Positions 963 to 52,816 of a stretch of DNA of 64,000 nt are shown here, one piece after another; within the stretch, counting starts at the first letter, position 1; each line of letters starts with the position of its first letter. Origin of the DNA: Myxococcota bacterium (GTDB taxonomy: Bacteria; Myxococcota; JAJVIH01); the NCBI GenBank assembly GCA_022072125.1, contig JAJVIH010000016.1, forward strand, positions 29,081 through 93,080, in the 5' to 3' direction. The notes under the pieces were generated by a model that was given only the letters and a program-made list of their open reading frames with translations, ran no database searches and was not told the DNA's origin. Position numbers and translations under genes: made by a program.

Positions 963-1037
<75 letters not shown>

Positions 1038-35725: not shown

Positions 35726-38386
35726 TCATTCCTTCCCGGCGAGTTCCAGTTTCTTGAGATTTGGATCGGCGGAAATCGCCGCCTCGCTGAACAGGATATC
35801 CCGGAATTTGCGGGACGAGAACAGTCCGGTCTGATCGGCGAAGTGGGGCGAACGGCTGTCTCCCGACTGCGAATAGGTCAGGATGGCTTTGGCCCGCGGC
35901 CCCTGGTCCGTATACTCCAGCGCCATCACGAAGCTGCTGCCGTGCCCCACCACGTATCCCAGATCGCTCAGCCCCGTCAGGCCGTTGATGGTCTTGCCCT
36001 TGGGGATGCGCGGCAGGAGCGTTCCATTCATGGGTTCGCCGATATCCATCATGTTGAAAGCGCCCTCGACCGTGCCGTTGCCGCCGGGAACGGGAATGCG
36101 CTTGCCGTTCTTCACGAAATGCTGCGCCTCGCCGAGGGGAGTGTCCGGCTTGAGTTTGGCCTGCTCCAGGCGCTGGAAGGCCTTCGCGATGTTGATCAGG
36201 ATGAGGTCCTGGGTTCCGGCCGCCGCCAGCCCCGAAGGCGTGGACTCCGGCTTCGCCGGATCAAAAGCCTGGGAAAACAGCTTGCCCTTGTCGAAATAAT
36301 CCTTCCACTCAAAACTTCCCAGGAATTCGCGCCAGGCCAGCGCGCCCCTGCTATCCGGATGCAGGCGGCCGTCCCAGTTGCGCAGCGCGTCGCACATGCT
36401 GGAAATATTGATCGCCTTGCCGGCCACCGTGACCTCCTTCAGCCCGGTGCAACGCTCGATCACGGGCTGGCGCAGGGTTTCTTCCATCCAGCCGCGGTTG
36501 GCGGCGAGGACGCCCGCCAGTTCATCGAGGGTGAATTTGCCATCCGCGCCGGAGACGCCGCCCTCGCGCGTTTCGGTGATCATCACCAGGTTGAGGCGGG
36601 TGCGCGGATCGCGCGGGGTCTTCTCCAGCCCGAACAAGGGCGAAAAACCTTCCAGCCGCTGCGCCGGATTGCTCAGCCAGTGGCTGTCGTTGGAATTGAA
36701 AACAAAGTCCGTGCGCCGGAGCCTGGGCGCTTTCGACAAGGGAACCAGACCGGGGCGCGGCGAATCCGCTTCCGTGACCCACTCGAACACCGGGTCGGAG
36801 CCATCCAGCAGCACCGCGCCATTGTTGTAGACCAACCCCACCAGCCCATCCTCCTTGATCAGCTTTTGCCAGGCTTCCAGGCCCTCCTTGCTGAGGTTGG
36901 GAACGGAGGTGGAGTCCATGTACAGGACGTTGCCTTCCTTGTCGGCGGCCATGGTGTTGACCCAGGGAATGCCGTGAACCTTTTCGTGCGCGCCGGCGAA
37001 TTCATCCATACTTCCCGCCGACGCCATGCGGTAGAACTGCTCCAGCAGGGCGCTGCTGTCGTCGTTGGCGTCGCGCATGGTCAGGCCAAGCTGCGGCTGC
37101 CAGCCGAAAGGCTGGACGTTGAGCATGGGACCGTAGTGGGTGCGGTACAGCACACGTTCGCGTTTGGCCAGGGAGCCGTCCGCCTGTTTGACCTCGATGG
37201 AGAAGCGCGTCGCAGTCATGTTCCGCCACTCCTTGCCGTAGCGGTACTGGGTGGGATTGCGCGGGTTGATGGTCAGTTTGTAGAGCGTGAATCGCTGCGA
37301 GGACGATACGGTATGCGTCCAGCCCACGTTTTCATTGAAGCCGATGTTGATTCCCACCACGCCCATCAGCGCCACGCCGTAGGCGTTGAGCTTGCCCGGC
37401 ACGGTCAGGTGGACTTCATGCAGCTTGAGTTCGCCTTCCCAGGGGAAATGCGGATTGGCCAGCACCATGCCCCGTCCGGAAGCGCTGCGTTCCCTGCCGA
37501 TGGCCCAGCCGTTGCTGCCCAGCCGCGGCCGCAGGTTGGGAAAGCCCTTCATATCTCCCGGCTGGATGGACGGCGGCGCCTTGCTCGGGGAAGGCGCGGG
37601 CGGTGACGCGGCGGCCATGGGATTGAGGAACTGCAGGCCCGAGGCGAAATGTCCCAGCGCGAAATAATAGGCCGTCAGGTCATATGGCGATACCGGGCGC
37701 ACCCAGGGCTGGTTGGCGCATTCCGCCGGGAGGTCCGCCGGTTTGGTGTCCGCCAGGTATTTGTTGAAGCCCGCCGCGTAGCCCCGGATCATGTCACGCA
37801 GTTCCGGACTGAATTTGGGCAGCGCCAGGCGCGCCTTGCGCATCACATCCAGTTGCAGGAAGGCGAAGTCGCTGTCCACATGGCGGTCATTGTTGCCCGG
37901 GCCGAGGAACATCGCCCGTTCGCCGCGCACGCGCACGATCTGATCGGCGAGGGTGCAAACATGATCCTGGGCGAATGCGTAACCCTGGCCGAAGGCGGCG
38001 CTTCCCGGATCATCCGCGGTGATATGCGGGACGCCATAACTGGTGCGGCGGATCACGGCCTTGTATTCGCGCGCCTCGAATTTCTCCTCCGGCGGCAGGA
38101 CAAAACCGGTGATGGTGACGCCGCCCGGTCCCCCGTCCGGTTCGTCCGGGCCGGATGATCCGCCATCGCTTCCCCCGCCGCCTGTATCGGCGGGCGCGGT
38201 GTCTGGCGCGGTGTCCGGTCCGGCGGCGTCTCCCGGTCCGGCGTCTTCAGCCGGGGCGGCGTCCGCGGGCGCGCCGTCCCGATCCCCCGGCGCGGGGCCG
38301 GAATCATTGACATTCTCCGTGGAGGAACAGGCGGCGGACAGCAGCGCGGCGATCAACCAGACATACAGGTGCTTGCGCATGGCCAA
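35726..38386 (-). CDS. Penicillin amidase / acyl-homoserine-lactone acylase family (Ntn hydrolase) lipoprotein
   Basis: Lipobox LLSAAC; internal GSNGWAIG at the beta-subunit nucleophile site; 886 aa. Confidence 0.85.
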   Translation of the reverse strand: MAMRKHLYVWLIAALLSAACSSTENVNDSGPAPGDRDGAPADAAPAEDAGPGDAAGPDTAPDTAPADTGGGGSDGGSSGPDEPDGGPGGVTITGFVLPPEEKFEAREYKAVIRRTSYGVPHITADDPGSAAFGQGYAFAQDHVCTLADQIVRVRGERAMFLGPGNNDRHVDSDFAFLQLDVMRKARLALPKFSPELRDMIRGYAAGFNKYLADTKPADLPAECANQPWVRPVSPYDLTAYYFALGHFASGLQFLNPMAAASPPAPSPSKAPPSIQPGDMKGFPNLRPRLGSNGWAIGRERSASGRGMVLANPHFPWEGELKLHEVHLTVPGKLNAYGVALMGVVGINIGFNENVGWTHTVSSSQRFTLYKLTINPRNPTQYRYGKEWRNMTATRFSIEVKQADGSLAKRERVLYRTHYGPMLNVQPFGWQPQLGLTMRDANDDSSALLEQFYRMASAGSMDEFAGAHEKVHGIPWVNTMAADKEGNVLYMDSTSVPNLSKEGLEAWQKLIKEDGLVGLVYNNGAVLLDGSDPVFEWVTEADSPRPGLVPLSKAPRLRRTDFVFNSNDSHWLSNPAQRLEGFSPLFGLEKTPRDPRTRLNLVMITETREGGVSGADGKFTLDELAGVLAANRGWMEETLRQPVIERCTGLKEVTVAGKAINISSMCDALRNWDGRLHPDSRGALAWREFLGSFEWKDYFDKGKLFSQAFDPAKPESTPSGLAAAGTQDLILINIAKAFQRLEQAKLKPDTPLGEAQHFVKNGKRIPVPGGNGTVEGAFNMMDIGEPMNGTLLPRIPKGKTINGLTGLSDLGYVVGHGSSFVMALEYTDQGPRAKAILTYSQSGDSRSPHFADQTGLFSSRKFRDILFSEAAISADPNLKKLELAGKE

Positions 38387-38477: not shown

Positions 38478-39290
38478 TCAATTGGACAGCCGGATGGGCA
38501 GATCCGCCGCCAGCACACGGTCTCCGCCGTCGTCGCGCGCGGCCCCCCGGTTGCTGACCCGCATGCGGATGCTGTCGCGGTAATGGTCGTAGAAACCGAC
38601 GTAGATCTTGGCCTCGTACGACTGGAAATTCGAGTACACGTAGTGGGTGAAGCGGTCGGCCACCAGTTCGCCTTTGCGCCACATGTCTGTGGGGTATTTT
38701 CCATCCGCCGGGAAATGATCCTTGATCATGCGGGTGGAGCCGTCCATGTGTACGAAAATCTTGTAGTCCACCCCCACGGGCTGAAGTACGCGGTAATACA
38801 GGATCACATCCACGCGCTCGGTCGGGGCGAAATGCTCGCGCATCACCTGCCAGGGCCGGCCGTCCACGAACTTGTTGGGAACGCCGTCAAGCTGGATGAC
38901 ATCGCCCTGCACGCCGGTGATTTCGTACTTCTCGTAGTAACCTTCCGGATCGCCGGTGAAGAACAGGTCCCCGGCGCGCACGCCCTTTGCGGGCAGCCCC
39001 GCGCCTTCCAGCAGAAGCGCCTTGTCCTGACCGGAAACCCGCTTCGCCTCCTTGCCATCGGCGAGGATATTGTTCACGCCGAAGAAATCGGTTCCTTCCA
39101 GCTTGAGGGCGTTGTCCCAGATGGCCTGGGAACGGCGTTTTTCGGGGATGCGCGGCATCTCCGGCAGGATCACGCTGCCCAGTTTTTCCCGGTTGAAATT
39201 GTGCCGGGTTTCTTCCACCGATTGCGGATCCGGCAGGCAGGCGCCAAGGGCCAGAACCACCGCCGGAATAGCCATGAATTTCTTCATCAT
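38478..39290 (-). CDS. Hypothetical lipoprotein, 270 aa
   Basis: MMKKFMAIPAVVLALGAC lipobox. Confidence 0.72.
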   Translation of the reverse strand: MMKKFMAIPAVVLALGACLPDPQSVEETRHNFNREKLGSVILPEMPRIPEKRRSQAIWDNALKLEGTDFFGVNNILADGKEAKRVSGQDKALLLEGAGLPAKGVRAGDLFFTGDPEGYYEKYEITGVQGDVIQLDGVPNKFVDGRPWQVMREHFAPTERVDVILYYRVLQPVGVDYKIFVHMDGSTRMIKDHFPADGKYPTDMWRKGELVADRFTHYVYSNFQSYEAKIYVGFYDHYRDSIRMRVSNRGAARDDGGDRVLAADLPIRLSN

Positions 39291-39339: not shown

Positions 39340-40548
39340 TTATTTTTTCTCTTCCGCGGGTTTGGGCGCTTCTTCAGGCTTTTTCTCTCCGGCCGTGCCG
39401 TTGGCTGGCGCTTCCTTGCCGTTCTCGTCGGAAGGCGGCGCCGCGGCGGGGGCTTCCGGAGGCGGAATCAACGGCACGAAATTTTTCTGCTGTTTGACGA
39501 CCAGAAGGGTGTGCGAACCGCCCTTGGCGGGAATCTGCACGGCGGCGATCTCCTCCGTCAGCGCCACGCCGGTTTCCACGGTGCCGCCGGTGACCTCGCC
39601 CAGTTCGGTCAGGACGTTGTTGAAGAGTTCAGCCGCCTCTTCCTTCTGTTTGGCCATCTCCTTGGGCAGCATTTTGCGGAAGCCCTTGTCGTCCTTCTTG
39701 ATGAGGACCTTGACCAGCTTGTTGCCGTAATCCAGCCATTCCCCCAGTTCAGCGGCGGGGCGGTAATGATGCACGATGACCATGGATTTATCCGCCTGCG
39801 CCAGCAACAGGGGAGCAGGGGCGCGCCCTCCCCCCACGAACGCGAGCCAGTTGCCGTCGCCCAGGTCCCGCAGGCTCTCCACCTTGGCGCCTTCGGTGCC
39901 GGTGGGGAAAAACGCCTTCTTCCAGTTATCGAGCCATTTGCGGAAATTGTCCGCCGAAAACCCTTTTTTCGCCGCCTCGGGGAGACCATTCTCGTACGCG
40001 CTGGCGTCATCCTGCCTGATTTGCTCGAAGACTGCTTTCGCCAGCGCCTGCGGGCTGTCCCCGCTTTCCTCCTGGTTCCCGTCGAACGAGGTCCACGCCC
40101 AGGTTCCATCAATTTTTTCCAGGTTGATGGATAGCGCCTGCTTGTCCAGACCGATCTTGAACTGGACATGGGTATTGTCAGTCCATTGGGGATCTCCGAT
40201 TAACTGGATTTTCTCCAGGGGCACCCCCTCGAAATAAAATTCTTCGTAATTCTTCATTTCCTCATCGAATTGCGCCTGGGTGAATTTCTCCCGCATGGAC
40301 ATGGGCAACAGGTCCCGGAACGCCGCGTAATTGCGGGTGTTGATGGCCTTGACGTAACGCTGGGCGATGGACTTCACATCCACCTTGTCGAGGCCTTCCA
40401 CCAGTCCGGTTCCCTGCTGAGCGGGTGCGGCGCCAGGCGCCGGGGCTTCCTGTTTCTTTTCGCACGCGGACAGGACAAACCACGCGGCGGACACCAGCAG
40501 AAGGAACATCCAGCGCGGGCGGGCGGAGCAATACGGACGCGGGCTCAT
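39340..40548 (-). CDS. Hypothetical lipoprotein with Lys/Glu/Pro-rich C-terminal tail
   Basis: Start taken at MSPRPY...FVLSAC (lipobox); C-terminal ...EKKPEEAPKPAEEKK. Confidence 0.72.
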   Translation of the reverse strand: MSPRPYCSARPRWMFLLLVSAAWFVLSACEKKQEAPAPGAAPAQQGTGLVEGLDKVDVKSIAQRYVKAINTRNYAAFRDLLPMSMREKFTQAQFDEEMKNYEEFYFEGVPLEKIQLIGDPQWTDNTHVQFKIGLDKQALSINLEKIDGTWAWTSFDGNQEESGDSPQALAKAVFEQIRQDDASAYENGLPEAAKKGFSADNFRKWLDNWKKAFFPTGTEGAKVESLRDLGDGNWLAFVGGGRAPAPLLLAQADKSMVIVHHYRPAAELGEWLDYGNKLVKVLIKKDDKGFRKMLPKEMAKQKEEAAELFNNVLTELGEVTGGTVETGVALTEEIAAVQIPAKGGSHTLLVVKQQKNFVPLIPPPEAPAAAPPSDENGKEAPANGTAGEKKPEEAPKPAEEKK

Positions 40549-40640
40549 GTCGTTTCTCCAGTCAGGGGACGCCCCGGTGGATACCACGGGAGCACGGGCT
40601 TGAAAAGCAGCAGACAGCCCCCGGCAGGCGGGGCGAGCCA

Positions 40641-41153
40641 TCACCACACCTTCCAGCACCAGACGCCGTAGTTCCATTCAAACTGGGCCGGCAATTCAAG
40701 CTGGCCTTCACCATAGGTGACACTGGCGGTGCGGGCGCGGTGGAATTTCACCGATTTGACCTTGATGTTATCCACCTTTCCGTTAAAGGGCAGATGAATC
40801 ATCGTCACGAGCTGGTCGAAGGCCTGTTTTTCCACTTCTTTGCGGACGGGATCGGGATAGAGCCGCAGAAACGCCTTGAAATCCTTGCGTTTGATGGTGT
40901 CCAGGAAGCGGTTGAAGGACGCCGTCACCGCCGCCGGATCGCGCGGCGCTTTCTGGGCGGCGCGCGATCCATCCCCCTCTGGCCGCGAAGCGGAATGCGC
41001 CTTTCCGGAAGAAACCGGCGCAAGTGTCCCGCTGCTTTCCATTCCCCCCGGGTTGGATGGTTTCGCCGCCGCCTCCCGGTCCGCCGCCGCGCCCATTATC
41101 AGGAACATGGCGGCGGCTCCAGACAATACGCGGATCAAACGGGTTTCAGCCAC
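40641..41153 (-). CDS. Secreted hypothetical protein, about 170 aa
   Basis: GTG start with AGGAGGA 7 nt upstream; signal peptide ...VLSGAAAMFLIMGAAA. Confidence 0.6.
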   Translation of the reverse strand: MAETRLIRVLSGAAAMFLIMGAAADREAAAKPSNPGGMESSGTLAPVSSGKAHSASRPEGDGSRAAQKAPRDPAAVTASFNRFLDTIKRKDFKAFLRLYPDPVRKEVEKQAFDQLVTMIHLPFNGKVDNIKVKSVKFHRARTASVTYGEGQLELPAQFEWNYGVWCWKVW

Positions 41154-41356
41154 GCGATTCCTCCTGTCATTCCGGATCATGGATGGGGCGGGTCTTCCAG
41201 CGCCCGCCGGACGAATAGTGTACCGCATCCGGGCGCGAAGCTCACGTGTTCCATTTCAACAGGTCCCCTGGCGCGGTCTCTCCGCCTCTTTTCGTTTCCG
41301 TGTGGCGGTCTTTATGGTCCTTCAGGAAGTTGATGCCAGGCCTTTCATCGTCCGGC

Positions 41357-41386
41357 AAAAAAGCAGGCCCATGGGCCTGCTTTTTT
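41357..41386. terminator. Bidirectional rho-independent terminator
   Basis: AAAAAA-GCAGGCCC-at-GGGCCTGC-TTTTTT: an 8-bp GC stem flanked by an A-run and a T-run, between convergent genes. Confidence 0.85.
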
Positions 41387-41411
41387 GTTTGTTGGATCCC
41401 AGGATACCGAA

Positions 41412-44400
41412 TCAGTAGGTTCCAATTTCTCCATTCTTGCCGGTTTCGCCCTGTTCTCCGCCGGCGCCGCCCGCGCCTCCGCCGCCGGGAATGAGCTGGT
41501 TGTTCAACGTGGTGGGCTTGGAACTGCCGGCCTGGATAATGGCGAAGGAAGGACCGCCTCCGCCTCCGCCGCCATCACCGCCCTTGCCGCCCTTGCCGCC
41601 ATCTCCGCCGCGCCCGCCGGCGCCGCCGTCGTTGCCGCTGTAGCTGGTGCTGCCGCCGGCGCCGCCGGTTCCGGCCTTGGCGGATTCGCCGCCGCGGCTG
41701 CCATCGCCGCCGTCTCCGCCCTTGCCGGAGATGATCGTGGAGTATTCAATCTTCGGCGAGGAATTCCACAGGAAGAGCCCCGCGGAAGCGCCGCCGGGTT
41801 CGCCGCCCTTGCCGCCCACGCCCCCTGCTCCACCGCCTCCGCCGCCGCCGCCCGCTCCGCCATAATCGGCGCAGCACCAGCCCAGATCGCCATCGCATCC
41901 GCCGCCACCGCCGCCACCACCGCCTCCGCCGCCGCCCGGCTGGCCATCTTCGCCGTCTCCGCCCTTGCCGCCGGTCCACTGGCCGTTCACCACCGAGCCC
42001 AAGCCATTGCCCATGGCGCCCGGAACACCGTCCTTGCCATCCTTGCCGCGTGCTCCCAGGCCGCCGCCTCCGCCGCGGGAACCGCCGCTGCCCGCGCCGC
42101 CCGCGCACCCACCCGCTCCGTCAGGGCCGGAGCCGCTGTCCGGATTGCACGGCTGAGCGCCCGCGCCCGGCGTTCCGGCGTTGCCGCCGCCCTTCTTGTG
42201 ACCCGGCACGCCGCCGCTGCCGCCGGTATTGGCGCCGTTGCCGCCGCTGCCCACATTGGGACGGCTGCACGAAGCGCAGCCCAGGCTGCCAATCCCGCCG
42301 ATGCCCCATTTTTCGCCGCCCGATTCGCATTGTGGATTGCCGGGGTTGCCAGTCTGGCCAATGTTGGCGTTGGCGGGAACCGGATCACCCGGCTTGCCGT
42401 CGGCGCCGTCGCCCGCCTGGATGACCGCCTTGTTGATCAGCAGGAAATCCTTCGAATCGCCCACCGCCACGCAGAACGCCGCTTCGCCGGGGGTGAAGGC
42501 GGACTGGCACTGCAATCCCACGTGATCGAGCACGGTCAATTCGGTCAGCCCCTGAACGAACATGATTCGCGGTTTCGAGCTGATCAGCTTGACCTCGTGG
42601 GTCTGGGAGCGTTTCCATGCGGCCTGCTGGTTGTAACCGCCGTACAGTTTGATGCCGTTGGGCAGCGAGATCGGGTTTTTGATGTTGTAGACGCCCTGCG
42701 AGATGTACACCGACTTGCTCGGGATATTCCGCGCGGCGGCGATACCGGCCTCGATGGTCTTCTTGGGTTTGTCCATCGTTCCGGGGGAGCCGTCGCTGCC
42801 CGAGGCGGAAACGTAGATCGCCTGGATATTCTTCGGATCCCGGCTTGCGAGGCCATCCACCCCATCGCAGTTGGAATCTTCGTAATCGTTGTCGGGAACG
42901 TCGTCCGGGCCCACGTAGTCGCAGGCGTATTCACACCCATTGGCCGGGTCGCCATCCAGATCCACCTTGCCCTTGTCGCATCCGGTGCCTTCGCCAAACA
43001 GCTTGAGCACCGTGCGTCCCGATCCGAATTTGGCGTGGACGATCGTGACTTCCGCTTCCACCGCTCCCACCTTGGTGGGTTGCAGGATGGCGGTCAGCTT
43101 GAGCACGGTCTTGTTGCCCGCTTCATTGACCAGTTCCGCCGGGTAGATGGTCGGAATGCCGTTGACCACAATCGCCGGATCGGGTTTGGTCACGGAAATG
43201 CTGTCAATTTCGATGGTTCCGGTGCCCGCGTTCTGCACGTAGATTTCCTTGGGGGGCGATTTGCCGCCAATGGACACCTTGCCCAGGTCCACCGGCGCGG
43301 GCGGGGTGATCTGCAGCTTGGGCTCCGATCCGACGCCTTCCACGGGGACTTCCACCGCGTTGGGCGAAGCCGCCGTGAGAATGAGGATTTTGTTTTCCCT
43401 CAGCCCCGCCTGCTTCGGTTCGAAGCTGACCTTCATTTCGTAAGTCTGCCCCGGGTCCACGCGGGTGGGCGCGTTGATCAGCTTGAAGTCGTCGCTGGTG
43501 ACGGCGAGTTTGACCTCCTTCACCACCAGGGATTCATCCGGCGAGACGTTGGTCAGGCGCAGGCTCTTTTCCGACTTCTGCCCCATCAGCGTTTCCGGGA
43601 AATTCAGCTTGGAGGGGTCCACCACAAGGCCTGCCGGGGTGACGCCCGCCGCCGCGCTCAGGGTGATGGTGGTCGCGCCGTCGTCGGGTTGGCCGTTGTT
43701 GTCAATGTCGGTGTCGTTGGTCTTGACATCAATCACCGCGTCATGACGGCCTTTTTTCTGTGCGAGGAAATTGACCGTGACCTTCACCTCCTGGCCGGGG
43801 TTCAGGAAGATCGGAATCTTCGCGTTGGGGTTCACGCCCACCACGTCGAAAGTCAACTGGAATTGATCAAACGCCGTGCCCGCCGTCTGCCGGACCTTGA
43901 ACTCGTTGAGTCCCAGGATGCTGGTTCCATTGCCGTTGTTCTTGACCGTGAAGACCTGATTGACCGGCTTGTTCACGTCGGTGGCGCCGAAGGTGATGGA
44001 ATGGTTCGCCGGGCCATTGGCGGCGGGCCACACCACCGTCGCCGGAGAGGCGTTGTTCTGGACGATGTTGTAATCCACCTCTCCCTTGTAGGTGCTGGCC
44101 ATCGCCACGCTGATTTTGGGGGTCTTGGCGTTGGAGATGACCTCGATGGTCCCGGAATCCGGCTTTTCATCGTCGGGTGAATACACCACCTGGAACACCG
44201 TCACGTCGCCCGGCTCCAGGATGGCCGCGGGGACCGGGTTGGGATCCAGCGCGAACGCCTTGCTGGTGGTGGATTCAAACTTCACTTCCAGCAACTGCAC
44301 CTTGCTCTGGCCCACATTGGAAATGCGCACCTGTTTGGTGGATGAACTGCCGAAACTGACCGCGCCGAAATCCAGCACCTGCGGGCTCACCTCCAGCACG

Positions 44401-44930
44401 CCCTCCGGGTTGATTTCGATTGGAGTGCATTTGCCCGTCTGGACCACGCAACGCTCGATATCCGGCTTGCAGTCCTTGTCGGATTTGCAGCCGCTGCCCG
44501 GGAATTTGCATACGCCCGACACGCAGGCGCCGTCTGGAGCGCAATCCGCGTCGCCGCTGCACAGGACATTGCCCGAACCATCCACGTCGCGGCAGAAAGA
44601 GGCCACGCATTTCTGATCGGACCGGCACTCGCTGTCCGCCGAACAAGGCACGCCGGCCGCGCCCTGGCAAACGCCGCCTTCACAGGTCTGCCCAGCCGGG
44701 CAGTCCAGGTTGCCGGTGCAGGAGATGGGGCCATCCCCCGGCGCCTCGCAGGTTCCTTCCTTGCAGACCTCGCCTTCGCCGCAGTCGAGGTCCGCCTGGC
44801 AGTTTTTCTGCGTCTGGCGGGGAGTGGGTTTGCCAACGCCCGCGTCGAGAATGCCGCCCGCGTCGCCACATCCCGCAATTCCCAAGGCGATGACCGTCAG
44901 GGCTGAAAATACAATGGAACAGGTCTTCAT
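41412..44930 (-). CDS. Giant multidomain surface lipoprotein, 1172 aa: Cys-rich EGF-like repeats, Ig-like (PapD/ASH-like) beta domains, beta-helix-like segment, Gly-rich collagen-like C-terminus
   Basis: Start taken at MKTCSIVFSALTVIALGIAGC (lipobox); C-x-x-G-x-C repeats; C-terminal about 330 aa is more than 50% Gly with GKDGKDGVPG / GKPGDPVP triplets and G13 runs. Confidence 0.85.
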   Translation of the reverse strand: MKTCSIVFSALTVIALGIAGCGDAGGILDAGVGKPTPRQTQKNCQADLDCGEGEVCKEGTCEAPGDGPISCTGNLDCPAGQTCEGGVCQGAAGVPCSADSECRSDQKCVASFCRDVDGSGNVLCSGDADCAPDGACVSGVCKFPGSGCKSDKDCKPDIERCVVQTGKCTPIEINPEGVLEVSPQVLDFGAVSFGSSSTKQVRISNVGQSKVQLLEVKFESTTSKAFALDPNPVPAAILEPGDVTVFQVVYSPDDEKPDSGTIEVISNAKTPKISVAMASTYKGEVDYNIVQNNASPATVVWPAANGPANHSITFGATDVNKPVNQVFTVKNNGNGTSILGLNEFKVRQTAGTAFDQFQLTFDVVGVNPNAKIPIFLNPGQEVKVTVNFLAQKKGRHDAVIDVKTNDTDIDNNGQPDDGATTITLSAAAGVTPAGLVVDPSKLNFPETLMGQKSEKSLRLTNVSPDESLVVKEVKLAVTSDDFKLINAPTRVDPGQTYEMKVSFEPKQAGLRENKILILTAASPNAVEVPVEGVGSEPKLQITPPAPVDLGKVSIGGKSPPKEIYVQNAGTGTIEIDSISVTKPDPAIVVNGIPTIYPAELVNEAGNKTVLKLTAILQPTKVGAVEAEVTIVHAKFGSGRTVLKLFGEGTGCDKGKVDLDGDPANGCEYACDYVGPDDVPDNDYEDSNCDGVDGLASRDPKNIQAIYVSASGSDGSPGTMDKPKKTIEAGIAAARNIPSKSVYISQGVYNIKNPISLPNGIKLYGGYNQQAAWKRSQTHEVKLISSKPRIMFVQGLTELTVLDHVGLQCQSAFTPGEAAFCVAVGDSKDFLLINKAVIQAGDGADGKPGDPVPANANIGQTGNPGNPQCESGGEKWGIGGIGSLGCASCSRPNVGSGGNGANTGGSGGVPGHKKGGGNAGTPGAGAQPCNPDSGSGPDGAGGCAGGAGSGGSRGGGGGLGARGKDGKDGVPGAMGNGLGSVVNGQWTGGKGGDGEDGQPGGGGGGGGGGGGGCDGDLGWCCADYGGAGGGGGGGGAGGVGGKGGEPGGASAGLFLWNSSPKIEYSTIISGKGGDGGDGSRGGESAKAGTGGAGGSTSYSGNDGGAGGRGGDGGKGGKGGDGGGGGGGPSFAIIQAGSSKPTTLNNQLIPGGGGAGGAGGEQGETGKNGEIGTY

Positions 44931-45177
44931 GTACCGCACGGCGGACCTTTCGATATGACCAGGCCGGACTTCTCGCACCCCCCGGATGACAAAATCCCAG
45001 AATCGAGGTGAAGGGGATATGATATCCGCCACACCTGACTGGCGACCCTCATCACTATAGCCAAACCGGGGAAAGATTGCATCCCCCAGTTGACCGTCCT
45101 TGCGCGTCAAATATGACGCGGCGCGTTATTAATGACTGCCCCCCCTCCCGAAGCGGCCGGGTCACGCCCGGGTTTCA

Positions 45178-46526: not shown

Positions 46527-49500
46527 ATGCGCAAGAACCTGTTGCTTCCAGTCTGCTTCGGAATATTCATCGCCGCCATCCAGTCGTGTTCGGGATGCCG
46601 TGAAACCGGCGGAGCCCCGCGCGCGCTGCGCGAGGCTAGCACCCAACCGGTCGCCGCCGTCAAGGAAATCCGCGCCCTTGCGGCCGCTGACTGGGGCGCC
46701 GCGGTTGGCGGCTCCGATGGCGTGGTGGCGGGCGTTCCCGCAAACGGATCGGCGCCCTTCGAGTTGCGCGGGCACGCAGCGCCGGTGACCCGGTTGTGCT
46801 TCGCCGCGAATGGCGAGCGGCTGGTTTCACTGGATCAATCCGGCGCCGCCAAGGTCTGGAACATCACATCGAAATCATGGTTGCGGGACCTGGCGCAAAA
46901 GGCCCCGGCCGTCACCGCCATGGCCAGCGAAGACGGATGGGCGGCGGCTGGCGCGGCGACCGGCGATATCACCCTGTGGCGGCCCGGGCCCGGGGGCGCT
47001 CCGGAACGGATCGAGGGACTATCAGCAGGGTCGGCCGTGCGCGCGCTGGCGTTTTCGCCTCGCGCAAAGCTGCTCGCCGCGGGAACCGAGGACGGCGCGT
47101 TGCGCATCCTCGATGTGGAATCGGGGTCGTGGCGGCCCTCCGCGGCCGCCTCCGGACCCGCCATCGCCGCCGTGCGCTTCGTCGAGACAAACGGCGTGAC
47201 GCGGCTCGTGGCGGTGCGGCGCAATGGTGAGTTCGCCTGGGCCGCGCCGGACGCCACGGACTTTCCGTGGCGGTCCTCCGGCCTCGATAAATTGAGCGCC
47301 GCCGCCATCGGCGGGCGCGGTGAAATCGCCGTGGCCCGTGACAGCGATCTGCGCGTATTCTTTCCCTCCGCCAAAAACAGCGGTGACTGGGAGCCGTGGA
47401 CTCTGCCCGCCGCCATTCCCCACGCGGCCGGCATCAGCGCATTGCATGTCTCGGGAGATGGAAAAACCGTTCTCACGGGCGGGCGTGACGGTCTTGTGGG
47501 TGTTTGGGATTCCCGCGGCGACGAGGTGAAAATCGTCTTTCGTGATCACGGCAATGTTGTAAGCGCCCTCGCCATGGACCCCCAGGGCAAGGTGATCGCC
47601 AGCGCGTCGGCGGATGGACAGATGATCTTCTGGCGGCTCAAGGGCGAGTTGCTGATCCTCAAGGCGAAGGCGGCGGGACCGCTCGCCGCACTGACGTTCG
47701 CAGCGCCGGACCGGGTGATTTCCGGCGGCGCCAGCGGCGAGATCGCGGCGTGGGATGTCTCCCTGACCCTGCCCGAATTGTACATGCGCCGGTACGTGCC
47801 CAGCGACTACCAGTACGCCTGCGCCAGCGGCGGCCAAATCATCGCGGCGGGGGATGGCTCGCGCAATGTGTGGCTGTGGGACAAGGACAACAACCGCATT
47901 CGCGTCATGCTCAAGGGTCTGACGGGGGCGGTGACGGCGATGGCGCTCAATCAGGCCGGGACAAAACTGGCGCTCGCCACCGGAGACGGGAAGCTTTGGA
48001 CATTCAATCCGGGAGATGGACAGCAGTTGCGCGAGGCGCCGCTGGTCACGTTGTCCCAACATGCGTTGAGTTCGGCTTTGATCCACCGCCTGGCGGCGGC
48101 GGGAGACTGGGTGATCGCCGCCGGTCCGCGTCATGTATGGGTGTGGAACAGCGCCGCCTCTTCCGTGAACGTGGTGGAGTCTCCCGGGGCGGCGGGCGGG
48201 CCGGTGGACGTGGCGGTTTCCGGCGATTCATCCGCCGCCATCCTGCACGACCGGCACGTGCGGCTTCTGGACCCGGCCAAACCGCCGCAAATACAAACCA
48301 TTGTATTGCCCAGGAGCGGCGCCAGCCGCATCGCGCTGGCGCCCGGCGGCGGCTTTGTCGTGGGGTTCGGCGATGGCGCGGTCGAACGCTACAACGCCAA
48401 AGGGATGGCGGCGGGCGGTTGCAAGGGGCTGACTGGTCCCGTGTTGCGCTTGGCGGTTTCCGCCACGGCCATCGCCGCCTCAACCGCCGGCGACGAGATG
48501 CGCTGGCCGGTCACGTGCGGCGCGGGCAAGCTGGCGCAGGCGCCCAGCGACATGGCGGCCGCGTGCCGTTATCAGAATGGACATTTGGTCGAGACCTCTC
48601 CGGCGCTGCTCGATTCCTTGCGCACCGAGGAGCCGCAACTGTTTGAACTGGTCGAGCCGCGGCGCCGGGAATTCACCGCGGCCGCGGCCGGGTCCAGCGG
48701 CATGGGCGGACAAATGGTGCTTGTCGCGTCGGCAGCCGGCGAGGTTTCCGTGCGCGACGCCGCCGCCGGCCGCGTGATCAACGCCTGGCCGCATTCCTCT
48801 CCGCGCACCGCCGCTTTGTCCGTGCCGCGCGCGCCCATCTTCGTGGTGGGATCGGAAGACGGCGCGTTGCAGGTGCTCGACGCCAGCACCGGCAAGGATC
48901 GCGTGTTCACCCAGACGGGGCGCGGCGGCGTGCGCGCCATGGCGGCCGGGCCCGATCAGTTCGCCGTGCTCTACGAAAAGGGCGTGGCCCTGCGCGCCTT
49001 CGCCACCCTCGCCGAAACCGCGTGGGCGCCGCTCGAAGGCGTGAACGCGATCAGCGTGGCGGCCGGCAAGGACATGGTTTGGGTGGGAGATGACAAGGGC
49101 GCCATCCACCCCATTGGGGTCAATGGAGAAAAATCCCGTCCCGTGCAGGCGGGAAACGCGCCCATCCGCGCCCTCGCCGCCGGGAAGGATGGCGTATTGT
49201 GGGCGGGCGACAACGCCGGTTTCCTGTGGCGGATTCCCGCCAGCGGCGCGCCGGAAAAATTCCCGCTGGATTCCACGGCCGTCACCGGGCTTCAGTTGGT
49301 CTGGAATGATCAATGGCTGATCGCGCTGACTTCCAGCGGCAAACTGCTGGCGTGGGACATCGCCCAATCGGTCATCCGGTTTGAAAAAACCGGCCTGGGC
49401 GGTCACAGCGATGTGCTGGCGGTCAGCGCGGACAACGCCTGGGTCATCAACGCCGGGCAGACGGGAGCGCAGGTCTGGCGGCTGAGCCGCGGCGAATTTC

Positions 49501-50090
49501 TTGCTTCATTGAAGGAGAGCGCGCCCATCTTCGCCGGGCTGGCCTGCCATCCCGCCCAGCCCGTCGCCTGGGTGGTCACCTCGCGCGATGAACTGTGGGA
49601 ATATCAACTGGATAGCGGTCAGGCCGGTGTCAACAAGAGTTTTTCCGGGGCGATACTGCGGCGCAACAAGGAAGAAGAGGAAGCCGCCTGGTCAGTGAGC
49701 ATCAACGGGGCCGTCATACCGGTTGACAGGGATTCCATGTCCGGGATCGGGGAGCGCAAACAGACCCGTATGCGGGCCGGCATGGGGGACGTGATCACAA
49801 CCATTCACCAAAAGGGCGATAGCTGGGTCTGGTCCCACCCCGCGCTTCCGGAGGAAGGCCTGAAGGTGTTTCCCGCGGGCGCACGGCTGTTGGCCTATGA
49901 CTGCGGTGGAAAGGATGCCTGCACCGCCGTGGCCACGGATCGGGTGGTGTGGCTGAAGGCGGCGCCCCAGGCGTCGTCCGTGACGAGACCGTTGCCCCGT
50001 CCCGCCATCCTGGCCCGGATTCATGGCGACCGGCTTTTCGCCGCCGGGGCGCCCAATATCGTGACGGTTTATCCGTTGCAGGCGGATTGA
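46527..50090 (+). CDS. Giant WD40/beta-propeller repeat lipoprotein, 1187 aa
   Basis: Lipoprotein signal peptide MRKNLLLPVCFGIFIAAIQSC; repeated WD-like ...GHxxxVxxLAFSPxGxxLAxGxxDGxLRIWD patterns throughout. Confidence 0.85.
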   Translation: MRKNLLLPVCFGIFIAAIQSCSGCRETGGAPRALREASTQPVAAVKEIRALAAADWGAAVGGSDGVVAGVPANGSAPFELRGHAAPVTRLCFAANGERLVSLDQSGAAKVWNITSKSWLRDLAQKAPAVTAMASEDGWAAAGAATGDITLWRPGPGGAPERIEGLSAGSAVRALAFSPRAKLLAAGTEDGALRILDVESGSWRPSAAASGPAIAAVRFVETNGVTRLVAVRRNGEFAWAAPDATDFPWRSSGLDKLSAAAIGGRGEIAVARDSDLRVFFPSAKNSGDWEPWTLPAAIPHAAGISALHVSGDGKTVLTGGRDGLVGVWDSRGDEVKIVFRDHGNVVSALAMDPQGKVIASASADGQMIFWRLKGELLILKAKAAGPLAALTFAAPDRVISGGASGEIAAWDVSLTLPELYMRRYVPSDYQYACASGGQIIAAGDGSRNVWLWDKDNNRIRVMLKGLTGAVTAMALNQAGTKLALATGDGKLWTFNPGDGQQLREAPLVTLSQHALSSALIHRLAAAGDWVIAAGPRHVWVWNSAASSVNVVESPGAAGGPVDVAVSGDSSAAILHDRHVRLLDPAKPPQIQTIVLPRSGASRIALAPGGGFVVGFGDGAVERYNAKGMAAGGCKGLTGPVLRLAVSATAIAASTAGDEMRWPVTCGAGKLAQAPSDMAAACRYQNGHLVETSPALLDSLRTEEPQLFELVEPRRREFTAAAAGSSGMGGQMVLVASAAGEVSVRDAAAGRVINAWPHSSPRTAALSVPRAPIFVVGSEDGALQVLDASTGKDRVFTQTGRGGVRAMAAGPDQFAVLYEKGVALRAFATLAETAWAPLEGVNAISVAAGKDMVWVGDDKGAIHPIGVNGEKSRPVQAGNAPIRALAAGKDGVLWAGDNAGFLWRIPASGAPEKFPLDSTAVTGLQLVWNDQWLIALTSSGKLLAWDIAQSVIRFEKTGLGGHSDVLAVSADNAWVINAGQTGAQVWRLSRGEFLASLKESAPIFAGLACHPAQPVAWVVTSRDELWEYQLDSGQAGVNKSFSGAILRRNKEEEEAAWSVSINGAVIPVDRDSMSGIGERKQTRMRAGMGDVITTIHQKGDSWVWSHPALPEEGLKVFPAGARLLAYDCGGKDACTAVATDRVVWLKAAPQASSVTRPLPRPAILARIHGDRLFAAGAPNIVTVYPLQAD

Positions 50091-50258: not shown

Positions 50259-51443
50259 ATGCGTGACCCGCTCATCATCGGCTCCCGGGGGAGCGATTTG
50301 GCGTTATGGCAGGCGCGGAGCGTGGCCTCGGCGCTGCAATCGCAACTGGGCCTGCGCGCCGGATTGCAGATTATCAAAACCCAGGGCGATCAGATTGATC
50401 ACCTTCCGCTCAACAAACTCGAAGGCAAGGGATTCTTCACCAAGGAACTGGAGGAAGCCCTGCTCGCGGGCCGCGTGGATATCGCCGTCCATTCGCTGAA
50501 GGATTTGCCCGTGGAACAGCCGCCCGGCCTGGTCATCGCGGCGATTCCGGAACGGCACGATCCCGGCGAACTGCTGCTGTTCCGGCCCGATGTGTTTGAT
50601 CCCGCCAATCCATGGCTGCCCATCCGCGCGGGATCGCGGGTGGCCACTTCATCGCCGCGCCGCGAGGAGCAGTTGAAGGAAATGGGATTCGCCTGCACGG
50701 GCATGCGGGGCAATGTTCCCACGCGTATCCGCAAGCTGCGGGACGGCGCCGCGGACGCCCTGTTGCTGGCCGTCGCCGGCGTGGAGCGGCTGGGGCTGAA
50801 CTTGTGCGGGCTGGGCGCGGCCAACGCCAGCGCAGGCCCCGGTTCCGTTTCCGGCGGCGTGATACCGGCGCCGGGGCAAGGCGCCCTGGCCATCCAGATC
50901 CGTCAAAGCGACGGAGCTCTGTTCAAGGCGCTGCAAGGGCTGGATCACATGGAAACCCGTTTGTGCGTGACCGCGGAGCGGCTCTTGTTGTCGCGCCTGG
51001 GCGGCGGATGTCACCTTCCGCTGGGTGCGCGGATTCGCCCTGGCGCCGGGGCATGGACCGCGCAGGCCGCCGTGTACACGGCGGGGCTTTCAGGCCGTTG
51101 CGCCTTCACCACGAACGCCAACTGGCCGCGGCGCGCGGAAGAGGCCGGGGTGGACCGCGCCGCGGCGGAGCTGGCGGATGAAATGGAACACCAGTTGCGG
51201 AACAAGGCCGGACCGCTTTCCGCGCCGGACCCCGCCAGTTCGCGTCAGACCGTCCTGATGGCGGGAGAGTCCCTGCCGGCGGAAGAGGTGTTCCGCCGCT
51301 TTCACCAGGGCGCCTGCGTGGTGTGGCGCGCCTCGGTTGATCCCTGGCCTTTTGGCGAGGCGTTCTTCGATGAGGCCCTGGCGGCGGACGCGCAGGCGGC
51401 GGATATCATCCGCGCCCATGCCCGGCGGGTGCGGGTGGCGTGA
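50259..51443 (+). CDS. hemC: Hydroxymethylbilane synthase (porphobilinogen deaminase) with an about 80-aa C-terminal extension
   Basis: IGSRGSDLALWQA...GNVPTRIRKL...LSRLGGGCHLPLGA HemC core; 394 aa versus a usual length near 310. Confidence 0.88.
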   Translation: MRDPLIIGSRGSDLALWQARSVASALQSQLGLRAGLQIIKTQGDQIDHLPLNKLEGKGFFTKELEEALLAGRVDIAVHSLKDLPVEQPPGLVIAAIPERHDPGELLLFRPDVFDPANPWLPIRAGSRVATSSPRREEQLKEMGFACTGMRGNVPTRIRKLRDGAADALLLAVAGVERLGLNLCGLGAANASAGPGSVSGGVIPAPGQGALAIQIRQSDGALFKALQGLDHMETRLCVTAERLLLSRLGGGCHLPLGARIRPGAGAWTAQAAVYTAGLSGRCAFTTNANWPRRAEEAGVDRAAAELADEMEHQLRNKAGPLSAPDPASSRQTVLMAGESLPAEEVFRRFHQGACVVWRASVDPWPFGEAFFDEALAADAQAADIIRAHARRVRVA

Positions 51444-51519: not shown

Positions 51520-51700
51520 CCATTAGGTTGGTTTTCACGCCCTGACATGTCGTCAGGACGTGGGAGGAAGCCGGTGCGAATCCGGCGCTGACCCGCAACC
51601 GTGAGTTCTGTTTCCGACAGAACAAGCCGGGAACTCCTTCACTGCAACTCCCTCGTGGTCTGGGGCAGGCAGAATCCGCATTCAGCGCCGCATGGCCGTG
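51520..51700 (+). ncRNA. Cobalamin (B12) riboswitch candidate
   Basis: Core GGGAGGAAGCCGGTGCGAATCCGGCGCTGACCCGCAACCGTGAG matches the consensus AGGGAA..GGTG.AA.TCC..GC.G.CCCGC.AC.GT.A; B12-box-like TTCACTG and GGGGCAGG downstream; in the 5' leader of the 51785 gene. Confidence 0.6.
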
Positions 51701-51784
51701 CCGTCAGGCCGGCCGGCGCCATCCGGTTTCTCTCCACAAACACGATGGGGTTTCTCACGCGACCCTTCTCTGGAGGAAGCCGAG

Positions 51785-52816
51785 ATGACCCATCCCAAGT
51801 CCGTTCATTCCATTTCCCTTGCCGTGCTGCTGGCGCTTTCCTGCTGGCTGGCCGGCTGTTCCGGCGACGCCGCGTCTTCCGATGGCGGATCAAACGCCGG
51901 CGGCGCCGGCCCCAAGGACGCCTCGCCGCCGCCGGATGCGGGCCCCGCCGATGGCGCCTTATCTGACAGCGCCCCGGCGGACGCCGCTCCAGGCGATGTG
52001 GCTGCAACTGACACGGCGCCTGGCGACGCCCAGCCGGCGGATGCGGGCGCGCCAGATGCGAATCCAGTGGACGCCGGCCCCGCGGATACGGCGCCCGCCG
52101 ATGCGCAGCCCACCGACACCCAGCCCGGCGATGGCGGTCCGGCGACGGCCCCGGGGCTGGCGATTGCGGGCGTTTACGCCAACAGTTTCGGCGGCTACGA
52201 GGAAATCACCAGCGCCCTGTGGAACGATACGCCCATCGTCGAGTTCGATAACAACAAGCGCGTGGTCTATACCCGGAATCCAGCGGATGCGAAGTTCAGC
52301 CCGGGCAAATTCAACAAGATCGTATTCACGGTTCCGGGCGGCGCATCGTTCCATTACTGCTTCGCGGACTTTGGCCTTGACTCGCTGGAGGCGGCGAAGG
52401 CGTCATCCAAGGCCGTGGACGAAAGCGATCCGGACAAGAAAGGCTGCGGCGGATTCTCCTGGACCAAATTGACCGCCACGGATCCGATTGAAATCGCCGG
52501 AACCTGGTCCAGCAATTTCGGCGGCGAGGAGATCATCCGCAGCATCCGCTGGGGCAAGGCGTCCATCAAACTCTTCGATAACGGGTCCAACACCGCCTAC
52601 ACGCAGAATCCGGAAGACGCCCCGGCCGGAGCCAGGAAATTCAGCAAGCTGGTCTGGACCGAACCGGTGGGCGGCGTTTTCCACTACTGCACGGTGGATT
52701 TCAACCTGGACACCCTCGCCGCGGCGCAGGCTTCGGCCAAAACCGCCGATCCATCCAACCCTGAAAAGGGAGGCTGCGGCGGGTTCTCCTGGACCAAACT
52801 CAACAGGAAAAACTGA
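51785..52816 (+). CDS. Lipoprotein with two tandem ~100-aa repeats of an unrecognised domain
   Basis: ATG with GGAGGA RBS; lipobox LAGC; PADA-rich linker; repeats IAGVYANSFGG...FHYCFADFGLDSLEAAKAS...KKGCGGFSWTKL and IAGTWSSNFGG...FHYCTVDFNLDTLAAAQAS...KGGCGGFSWTKL. Confidence 0.78.
   Translation: MTHPKSVHSISLAVLLALSCWLAGCSGDAASSDGGSNAGGAGPKDASPPPDAGPADGALSDSAPADAAPGDVAATDTAPGDAQPADAGAPDANPVDAGPADTAPADAQPTDTQPGDGGPATAPGLAIAGVYANSFGGYEEITSALWNDTPIVEFDNNKRVVYTRNPADAKFSPGKFNKIVFTVPGGASFHYCFADFGLDSLEAAKASSKAVDESDPDKKGCGGFSWTKLTATDPIEIAGTWSSNFGGEEIIRSIRWGKASIKLFDNGSNTAYTQNPEDAPAGARKFSKLVWTEPVGGVFHYCTVDFNLDTLAAAQASAKTADPSNPEKGGCGGFSWTKLNRKN

Follow-up and report, generated by a model that had tools for sequence, protein, structure and literature searches.

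A putative lipoprotein of Myxococcota ends in a conserved module with a predicted folded glycine-rich domain

Folded glycine-rich assemblies of polyproline II or polyglycine II (PPII/PGII) helices are known from only a handful of solved kinds, which are of interest to protein designers, namely, the springtail antifreeze proteins (Protein Data Bank [PDB] codes 3BOG and 7JJV), the gp38 tip of phage S16 (6F45), the N-domain of Obg (1LNZ), acetophenone carboxylase (5L9W), and ALK/LTK (7N00) (bioRxiv 10.1101/2023.11.25.568672). A packing rule known for the springtail antifreeze proteins, phage S16 gp38, ALK/LTK, and the predicted PGRS domains ties sequence to burial: helices with one buried face show Gxx, those with two show GGx, and fully surrounded helices are all Gly (bioRxiv 10.1101/2023.11.25.568672; PMC9436101). 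The PGRS domain is a predicted PGII sandwich with acidic faces, for which AlphaFold gives confident models (PMC9436101). Here we analyze a gene on the minus strand of a 64,000-nucleotide stretch of DNA from a Myxococcota bacterium (GenBank assembly GCA_022072125.1, contig JAJVIH010000016.1, positions 29,081 to 93,080; the whole stretch is called the window below), which encodes a predicted lipoprotein of 1172 amino acids (aa) with a Gly-rich tail. The models and the family conservation set out below argue that this tail would be a rigid structural domain of fixed length rather than a collagen triple helix, disordered linker, or slippage tract, a structural claim to which both prediction and conservation lend good support. 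The tail closes a C-terminal module of ~520 aa (aa 650 to 1172) that, judged by sequence comparison, is part of a large, conserved, and unnamed domain family.

An exhaustive phmmer search with the module (aa 650 to 1172) as the query against 1.84 billion cluster representatives recovered 3628 of them at E<1e-3, of which 1760 remained at E<1e-10 and 216 at E<1e-30, the best match having E=6.6e-65; the matched proteins have lengths of 500 to 2643 aa, and among the 150 matches listed, nearly all cover almost the full query and stop near the C terminus of the matched protein. A homolog search with the full-length protein found no close ortholog (low-complexity words are likely to have crowded out candidates) but did find two relatives (P0001 and P0011) aligned over aa 650 to 1060 and further, the Gly-rich part included. 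The best module identity is 47%. Scanning species-representative genomes with the N-terminal, non-Gly portion of the module, followed by tblastn confirmation, yielded at least 507 module loci, mostly in Myxococcota, with a few in Bacteriovoracia and in metagenome-assembled genomes (MAGs) carrying other labels; named carriers are Polyangium jinanense, P. fumosum, and Sorangium cellulosum So ce26. The module ends 0 to 4 aa from the stop in nearly all of the fetched open reading frames (ORFs). Measured from the Asp-rich motif at its start (see below) to the stop, it has a median length of 453 aa (interquartile range [IQR], 447 to 464) in 80 related loci, compared with 488 aa in the window protein. 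The longest Gly run comprises 7 to 12 residues in most of these loci, the 13 residues of the window protein being the longest run seen, and poly-G runs are kept in the family alignments. The preliminary description of this DNA had proposed a search for paralogs that differ in Gly-tract length as a sign of phase or length variation; the comparison of the 80 loci, with their nearly constant module length and retained poly-G run, speaks against such variation.

The N-terminal parts of the module proteins are highly variable, and total lengths range from 484 to 2643 aa. The closest relatives have ASH/choice-of-anchor D domains upstream of the module, while other members have MopE-type Cys motifs, Big_2, further domains, or almost nothing, and many are composed of approximately a signal peptide and the module only (484 to 600 aa). 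The same type of lipoprotein signal as in the window protein is found in 142 of 236 family members (60%). We defined the family by a full-length profile match, the motif D-x-P-D-x4-D-x-N-C-D-G-x-D-G, and the position of the module at the C terminus of the protein. The window protein shows the full-length match, the Asp motif residues, and the module at its C-terminal end; the hmmsearch match to the A2 family profile has E=2.3e-119 and a C-terminal gap of 0, with some circularity, as the 60 sequences of A2 include the window module, whereas the phmmer search described above, made with the window module alone, is independent support. Searches with Pfam and NCBIfam found nothing significant from aa 650 on in the window protein, and no model covers its Gly-rich part. 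In the databases, family members are named "hypothetical protein" or, rarely, "collagen-like protein" (P0204), "DUF1565 domain-containing protein," or "putative metal-binding motif-containing protein." Literature searches on DUF1565 with Gly-rich parts, PGII in Myxococcus, and PPII prediction (a 2026 predictor paper) uncovered no description of the family in the searchable literature. A match to a well-characterized family, which the preliminary description had named as grounds for dropping its reading, is not what we found: the family is large yet uncharacterized. Several module genes with differing N-terminal parts occur in one genome, e.g., loci L010 and L027 (CAVSWE010000009.1) and loci L042 and L067 (CAZCWA01), which indicates paralogous expansion and not tandem duplication; there is no paralog of the module elsewhere in the window.

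The gene and the features of its C-terminal module are as follows (window coordinates).
41412 to 44930, minus strand: coding sequence of 1172 aa plus stop, with the ATG at 44930 and the stop at 41412 to 41414 (ORF listing and translation).
42852 to 42980, minus strand: Cys/Asp-rich motif at the start of the module, aa 651 to 693 (CDKGKVDLDGDPANGCEYAC...DVPDNDYEDSNCDGVDG), a putative Ca2+ site (conservation).
42411 to 42830, minus strand: predicted short right-handed beta-helix (DUF1565/pectin-lyase-like) with cap motif, aa 701 to 840 (IQAIYVSASGSDGSPGT..P..TI..., YGGY, W772, R774) (AlphaFold2 and Foldseek).
41415 to 42410, minus strand: predicted Gly-rich folded domain, aa 841 to 1172, with eight Gly-every-third segments (Gly autocorrelation, column conservation, and AlphaFold2).
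41898 to 41936, minus strand: run of 13 Gly residues (G13), aa 999 to 1011, with mixed GGC/GGA/GGT codons, corresponding in the alignments to the run GGGGGGGG(x)GG of the family consensus (family alignments).
41730 to 41786, minus strand: predicted beta-helix-type rung inside the Gly-rich domain, aa 1049 to 1067 (SAGLFLW..SPKIE..TII) (AlphaFold2 strands and conservation).
41490 to 41549, minus strand: predicted second embedded rung, aa 1128 to 1147 (SFAIIQA...) (AlphaFold2 strands; family consensus PSxGI).

Monomer models were built with AlphaFold2 from a 60-sequence alignment. The model of aa 650 to 1172 has a mean predicted local distance difference test score (pLDDT) of 92.1 and a predicted template modeling score (pTM) of 0.83, and the Gly-rich part modeled alone (aa 835 to 1172) gives nearly the same values (pLDDT, 91.9; pTM, 0.84). 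Three-strand rungs are repeated at module positions ~56 to 189, where the beta-helix has a pLDDT of 94 to 98. The rung pattern recurs inside the Gly-rich domain at module positions 400 to 418 (strands 400 to 406, 409 to 413, and 416 to 418) and 479 to 498 (strands 479 to 485, 491 to 493, and 496 to 498). Between and after all of these rungs lie Gly-rich stretches of ~210, ~60, and ~25 residues, mostly with a pLDDT of 95 to 98 and with a few lower-confidence loops. Foldseek searches of BFVD with the whole module recovered a DUF1565 protein as the best match (E=6.2e-6), and searches of the PDB recovered partial, weak matches to the rhamnogalacturonan lyase 5olq (E=3.6e-3), RbmB, and the CBA120 TSP1 tailspike; the beta-helix matches have probabilities of 0.96 to 1.0, yet their template modeling (TM) scores are below 0.25 as the alignments are partial. 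Together, the rungs and the matches to the pectin-lyase fold and DUF1565 are in line with the beta-helix-like stretch that had been noticed at NIQAIYVSASGSDGSPG (aa 701). In Pfam, the window module lies below the cutoffs of PF07602, PF13229, and PF12708 (matching only the last, with E=0.0022 and 18.3 bits versus 27), and the cutoff of PF07602 is reached by 2 of 25 relatives. With the Gly-rich model as the query, Foldseek gave no significant match among 350,542 PDB chains, and a sequence search of the PDB recovered chance matches only. The Gly-rich part is thus a confidently predicted compact fold for which Foldseek finds no solved counterpart. The last module residues form a short strand in the model; an aromatic residue closes many of the member proteins, frequently with a Pro after it (..IYP, ..TYP, ..VF, and ..VY), the corresponding residues of the window protein (aa 1168 to 1172) being EIGTY.

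The tail (last 332 aa) is 41.6% Gly, which is less than the >50% first reported; the sole 50-aa block exceeding 50% is aa 1001 to 1050 (62%). Two further elements of that report, GKDGKDGVPG (aa 962 to 971) and the G13 run (aa 999 to 1011), are both present. In sequence, PPII/PGII assemblies are recognizable by successive segments of ~9 to 12 residues in which each third residue is Gly, buried helices showing GGx or GGG, and in structure by backbone dihedrals near -75/+150 degrees and left-handed helices packed against one another. Autocorrelation and the family alignment bring out such third-residue segments in the tail, GGx and poly-G included: the Gly autocorrelation reaches 0.44 at lag 3 and falls to 0.20 at lag 6 and 0.14 at lag 9, with values of about zero at lags 1, 2, 4, and 5, and Gly is kept at each third residue in eight segments, as Gxx, GGx, or all-Gly. 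Among these eight period-3 segments is a family-wide run of ~8 to 13 Gly residues. Across 60 homologs that are 35 to 44% identical to the query, the Gly columns are conserved one by one, and the Gly composition of the tail is therefore not due to chance. The Gly-rich part is acidic. Because the predicted fold is compact without helix or strand, its Gly residues have a period of 3 and are graded from Gxx over GGx to all-Gly, and Cys is conserved, we infer a PPII/PGII geometry for the Gly segments.

Conservation of the other residues was assessed from alignments of 25 and of 60 module members. The Asp motif at the start of the module, with the consensus D-x-P-D-x4-D-x-N-C-D-G-[IV]-D-G (aa 677 to 693), is nearly invariant, D677, P679, D680, D685, D689, and D692 being 98 to 100% conserved in 60 homologs. 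It is followed by the family cap motif [AS][IV]FV..xGxDxNxGT...P..TI..A and then YGGY, W772, and R774. Within the Gly-rich domain, the hydrophobic block at aa 1049 to 1067 has the consensus (A)SxxLxL..S....I with an invariant S1049, and that at aa 1128 to 1147 has PSxxI; these two blocks are the embedded rungs of the model. A Cys that is widely conserved in the family at position 1035 is missing in the window protein. The conserved non-Gly residues are thus the Asp cluster and structural residues (W772, R774, and S1049); no catalytic-type set is conserved among the 60 homologs, and no acidic or basic cluster is kept beyond the Asp-rich motif at the N-terminal end of the module. The Asp motif and the beta-helix cap show weak local similarity, in 13 of 25 short relatives (e.g., P0071, P0073, and P0076), to NF047854, the family of the Leptospira proteins LIC10774 and LIC10365, with 20 to 26 bits versus a cutoff of 380 and over model positions ~62 to 126 (about 60 of 358). 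The title of Passalia 2020a, as listed in PMC8657130, names LIC10774 a calcium-binding surface protein. The lead to Ca2+ comes from this local, weak resemblance of the relatives to the LIC10774 family, and we regard the Asp cluster as a candidate Ca2+ site by motif resemblance. The matches also suggest that the Asp motif and beta-helix cap may be distributed more widely than the Gly-rich domain.

We favor, with a probability of slightly more than one-half (about 0.55), the reading that the window protein is a lipid-anchored envelope protein in which a stalk carries a distal, folded module of ~520 aa whose PPII/PGII Gly-rich domain is part of a nonenzymatic binding head. Sec export and lipidation would anchor the protein via its N terminus. 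The five 4-Cys repeats, of a disulfide type, would form a spacer or stalk together with the four Ig-like domains and would hold the C-terminal module at its distal end. We read the module as the functional head because many members have little beyond a signal peptide and the module. It would be one folded unit made up of the Asp-rich, probably Ca2+-binding motif, the short beta-helix, and the Gly-rich domain, with Gly segments of ~60 to 200 aa placed between further beta-helix rungs; in a side-by-side packing of left-handed PPII/PGII helices, the all-Gly ones would make up the core and the Gxx ones would line the edge. Our best guess is that the module binds polysaccharide or another surface away from the membrane, binding being preferred to cleavage since no catalytic set is conserved. 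A role in the cell envelope or at the surface is plausible, and the window protein would be exposed at the surface instead of being confined to the periplasm.

Several observations weigh against this reading. In the high-pLDDT Gly stretches, DSSP assigns just "neither helix nor strand." Foldseek with the Gly-rich model gave four matches at E<=10, namely, chains of the PPII-bundle antifreeze proteins 7JJV and 3BOG and of the Bxb1 mycobacteriophage tail tip, but with E values of 0.6 to 2.8 they are not significant, and Gly composition alone could explain the matches to PPII bundles. The window module has no match to NF047854 at E<=10, and the Gly-rich domain is not matched by that model. Clustering of the gene neighborhoods of 84 loci uncovered no conserved partner gene hinting at function and no synteny with the window, the top clusters (antisense shadow ORFs, Ser/Thr kinases, OmpA-TSP3 proteins, and sigma-54 activators) all being generic for Myxococcota. 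Finally, the beta-helix could be an enzyme with a poorly conserved active site.

A bolder version of the favored reading, which we advance tentatively and with the odds somewhat against it, is that the module represents an undescribed fold class in which the last beta-helix rungs alternate with a multilayer PGII lattice with an ALK-like all-Gly core. It would then be the largest bacterial family of this kind outside PE_PGRS by far (>1700 clusters) and would furnish envelope lipoproteins of predatory and social Myxococcota with a rigid, Ca2+-stabilized recognition head.

Among the alternatives, the one that survives best, though we consider it unlikely, is that the module serves as a retention or anchoring domain for variable N-terminal passengers, attaching itself to the cell's own lipopolysaccharide or exopolysaccharide or forming an outer-membrane surface "sail." The combination of a constant C terminus with a highly variable N terminus is typical of sorting and anchoring domains. 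Choice-of-anchor D domains are named for their co-occurrence with alternative C-terminal anchors. Moreover, beta-helix proteins often bind surface polysaccharides, as the tailspikes among the Foldseek matches illustrate, and the acidic Gly-rich part resembles the faces of PGRS domains, for which a sail model has been put forward (PMC9436101). However, a lipid anchor is already present at the N terminus of most members, the many members of 484 to 600 aa suggest that the module is itself functional, and no conserved hydrophobic edge came to light.

Quite unlikely, in our estimate, is that the module is a pectin-lyase-fold polysaccharide enzyme (a lyase, hydrolase, or epimerase) with the Gly-rich part as an accessory groove wall. 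The best structural matches of its N-terminal part are indeed enzymes, including the rhamnogalacturonan lyase, the RbmB lyase, tailspike depolymerases, and other glycoside hydrolases and polysaccharide lyases, and there are weak Pfam and NCBIfam matches to Pect-lyase_RHGA_epim and a rhamnogalacturonidase model. These structural matches are weak, though (E>=3.6e-3 in the PDB and TM scores below 0.25), and they span ~150 to 200 residues only; the beta-helix has few rungs, and the 60 homologs conserve no acidic or basic catalytic cluster apart from the Asp-rich motif.

The remaining alternatives are very improbable. A collagen-like triple helix that trimerizes the protein, in line with the collagen-like C terminus of the preliminary description, could account for the period-3 Gly, for short G-X-Y runs such as GARGKDGKDGVPGAM, and for the name "collagen-like protein" given to one relative, and a profile search of the PDB recovered collagens at E values of 1e-6 to 1e-3 (along with one "spindle fibril" match with a negative domain score). 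These collagen matches are weak and scattered over many overlapping placements, as the shared Gly period would give. The tail has no match to Pfam Collagen (PF01391) at E<=1, its longest strict G-X-Y run is 5 triplets, GGx and poly-G predominate and are broken by conserved Cys and hydrophobic strands, and the AlphaFold2 monomer is compact (pTM, 0.83 to 0.84), so that the collagen-like reading is largely refuted.

The same degree of improbability applies to the tail as a disordered low-complexity region, be it a slippage-prone contingency tract, as first suggested, or an assembly artifact. Its DNA has a GC content of up to 75 to 77%, the program TRF reports imperfect period-3 and period-9 arrays in it, and GGC is the dominant Gly codon (103 of 138 tail Gly residues). 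Yet GGA and GGT interrupt the runs, as in the G13 codons (GGC GGC GGC GGA GGC GGT GGT GGC GGC GGT GGC GGC GGA), and the longest perfect (GGC)n has only 4 units (12 nucleotides), making the DNA a poor slippage substrate. With pLDDT values >90 and with Gly columns, poly-G runs, and total length kept over hundreds of distant homologs, this alternative is largely refuted too: since the tail belongs to a large conserved domain family with an identical Gly pattern throughout, misassembly is excluded and slippage-driven variation is very unlikely.

The least probable alternative, an RTX-like Ca2+-binding beta-roll of GGxGxDxUx nonapeptides, for which the Gly- and Asp-rich sequence might speak and which was once proposed for PE_PGRS proteins (PMC5054227), founders on a Gly period of 3 and not 9 (autocorrelation, 0.44 at lag 3 versus 0.14 at lag 9), the lack of any Asp or hydrophobic position conserved in the nonapeptide register, the absence of a HemolysinCabind (PF00353) match in Pfam, and the near absence of strands in the modeled Gly segments. 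Membership in PE_PGRS itself was rejected: the protein begins with a lipoprotein signal followed by Cys repeats, and no PE family is among its Pfam matches.

The part of the protein upstream of the module has the following features.
44868 to 44930, minus strand: predicted lipoprotein signal peptide, aa 1 to 20 (MKTCSIVFSALTVIALGIAG), followed by the lipidated Cys21 (PROSITE PS51257-type pattern).
44427 to 44801, minus strand: five 4-Cys repeats, aa 44 to 168, C-x5-C-x5-C-x4-C (Cys positions and Pfam DUF7107).
42987 to 44405, minus strand: about four predicted Ig-like beta-sandwich domains of the choice-of-anchor D/ASH/HYDIN type, aa ~176 to 648 (NCBIfam and Pfam).

The order of domains given in the preliminary description (lipobox, Cys repeats, Ig-like beta-sandwiches, beta-helix-like stretch, and Gly-rich end) holds. 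The PS51257 pattern combines a positive N-region, a hydrophobic region, and a lipobox [LVI][ASTVI][GAS]C within the first ~35 aa, and LTVIALGIAG before C21 agrees with it; from this signal pattern, the window protein is predicted to be a bacterial lipoprotein with a Sec/SPII signal. In the sorting of Myxococcus lipoproteins, Lys at position +2 is an inner-membrane retention signal. The residue at +2 after the lipidated Cys21 is Gly and not Lys, and an outer-membrane location is therefore likely. The 20 Cys residues in aa 44 to 168 form five 4-Cys units of ~18 to 25 aa each, which score above the cutoff of Pfam DUF7107 (PF23416; E=2e-6; 28.4 bits versus 24.6; 4 stretches) and below that of the NCBIfam model Myxo_Cys_RPT (TIGR04201; 17 versus 25 bits). 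The presence of Cys repeats is thereby confirmed, but they are not EGF-like as had been supposed: EGF domains are six-Cys units of ~35 to 40 aa with 1-3, 2-4, and 5-6 disulfide spacing and a Pfam EGF-type match, and no EGF family is among the Pfam matches of the protein at E<=1. For the Ig-like region, with approximate inner boundaries at aa ~176 to 275, ~300 to 425, ~433 to 534, and ~540 to 648, the assignment to PapD/ASH-like domains is vindicated by matches to NCBIfam choice-of-anchor D (NF012200; 135 bits versus a cutoff of 45; 4 stretches) and, in Pfam, to HYDIN_VesB_CFA65-like_Ig (PF22544; E=2.8e-25; 88.9 bits versus 25.5), ASH (PF15780; E=1.8e-16; 60.5 bits versus 27), Cep192_D4 (E=5e-23), and PapD-like (E=4.4e-8).

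The ORF listing and translation agree with the coordinates 41412 to 44930 and the length of 1172 aa given earlier and place the gene on the minus strand. In-frame alternative starts lie upstream of the ATG at 44930 (at 44939, 44978, 45032, and 45110), but none of them is followed by a signal peptide; we take the ATG at 44930 as the start because the signal peptide with its lipobox comes directly after it. Neither a sigma-70-like promoter nor a convincing terminator was found around the gene. An antisense ORF of 931 aa (41385 to 44180, plus strand), Ala/Arg-rich, lies opposite the gene, and the plus-strand frame over the coordinates of the gene is likewise an Ala/Arg-rich shadow, with stops; the 931-aa ORF is a shadow ORF and not a gene, and the clustering of equivalent antisense ORFs in 36 related loci simply reflects conservation of the sense gene. 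Three small ORFs follow downstream of the gene on its strand (40641 to 41228, 39340 to 40677, and 38478 to 39290, minus strand), the last two of which have lipobox-like N termini (..LSAC and ..LGAC); ORF 38478 to 39290 is MCG3172566.1, a "hypothetical protein." No Pfam domains were detected in the two of the three that were scanned (39340 to 40677 and 38478 to 39290), and no homologs of the three occur beside the module gene in other loci. Together with the module gene, they may constitute a lipoprotein cluster. This string of same-strand genes ends with an 886-aa penicillin amidase family protein (35726 to 38386, minus strand; PF01804; E=7e-133).

On the other side, a 1187-aa WD40 beta-propeller protein (46527 to 50090, plus strand; MCG3172572.1, hypothetical) is encoded on the opposite strand ~1.6 kb upstream of the start of the module gene. 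It is followed by HemC (porphobilinogen deaminase; 50259 to 51443, plus strand; 394 aa), for which many of the top matches are Bacteroidota HemC-HemD fusions; its best nonself relative is only 54% identical, so that the Myxococcota lineage of the source MAG is sparsely sampled. A cobalamin riboswitch (51521 to 51654, plus strand; Rfam RF00174; 39.9 bits versus a gathering score of 31.5) is situated directly upstream of a 374-aa ORF (51692 to 52816) that has no Pfam match. A tRNA-Gly(CCC) at 963 to 1037 (plus strand) was called by ARAGORN and Rfam alike. A search of plasmid DNA gave no match.

The building blocks of this protein (a lipoprotein signal, an Ig-like stalk, a beta-helix, and Gly-rich PPII assemblies) are known, but their combination has no Pfam or NCBIfam cover and no significant PDB counterpart by Foldseek. 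If the favored reading is true, a family of fixed length, thousands strong, with conserved poly-Gly runs and built on a beta-helix scaffold, would provide a large natural data set along with a new architecture, and many tails of Myxococcota proteins annotated as low-complexity and collagen-like would be structured domains. The family makes the case for a new domain model in annotation. It also flags an abundant, unnamed class of myxobacterial envelope lipoproteins, with adhesion, matrix, and prey recognition as candidate roles, which homologs in cultivable Sorangium and Polyangium strains make testable.

Compared with the systems described to date, the window protein is distinguished as follows. 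(i) With the Leptospira proteins LIC10774 and LIC10365 it would share the context of a surface lipoprotein. (ii) Like DUF1565 and pectin-lyase proteins, it has a cap motif G-x-D-x-N-x-G-T...P..TI and, in the model, three-strand rungs (Foldseek matches 5olq, 9ozd, and 4oj5); unlike them, it matches over ~140 to 190 aa only, conserves no catalytic residues, and has long Gly insertions without a counterpart. (iii) Like PE_PGRS, it is a putative bacterial envelope protein with a large, acidic, GGx-rich domain that is confidently predicted. Unlike PE_PGRS, it comes from another taxon and lacks a PE domain, a GRPLI motif, and a context of type VII secretion; its Gly domain is C-terminal to a beta-helix in a predicted Sec/Lol-type lipoprotein, and whereas PGRS domains are polymorphic and range from tens to >1000 aa, the module of its family has a fixed length (IQR, 447 to 464 aa in the 80 loci). 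(iv) Like the PPII bundles, it combines third-position Gly, GGx and all-Gly stretches, and family-conserved Cys with a model that is compact without helix or strand, and as in ALK and gp38 (bioRxiv 10.1101/2023.11.25.568672), the Gly assembly is grafted on a beta-rich scaffold; unlike them, it has no detectable homology to these proteins, and its predicted scaffold is a right-handed beta-helix with rungs alternating with Gly segments. (v) The nearest counterparts are found among the module relatives of Myxococcota (P0020, P0023, P0001, and P0011), in which aa 650 to 1172 are alignable at 35 to 47% identity and which share with the window module the Asp motif, the cap motif, the Gly columns, the poly-G runs, the hydrophobic rungs, and the C-terminal position.

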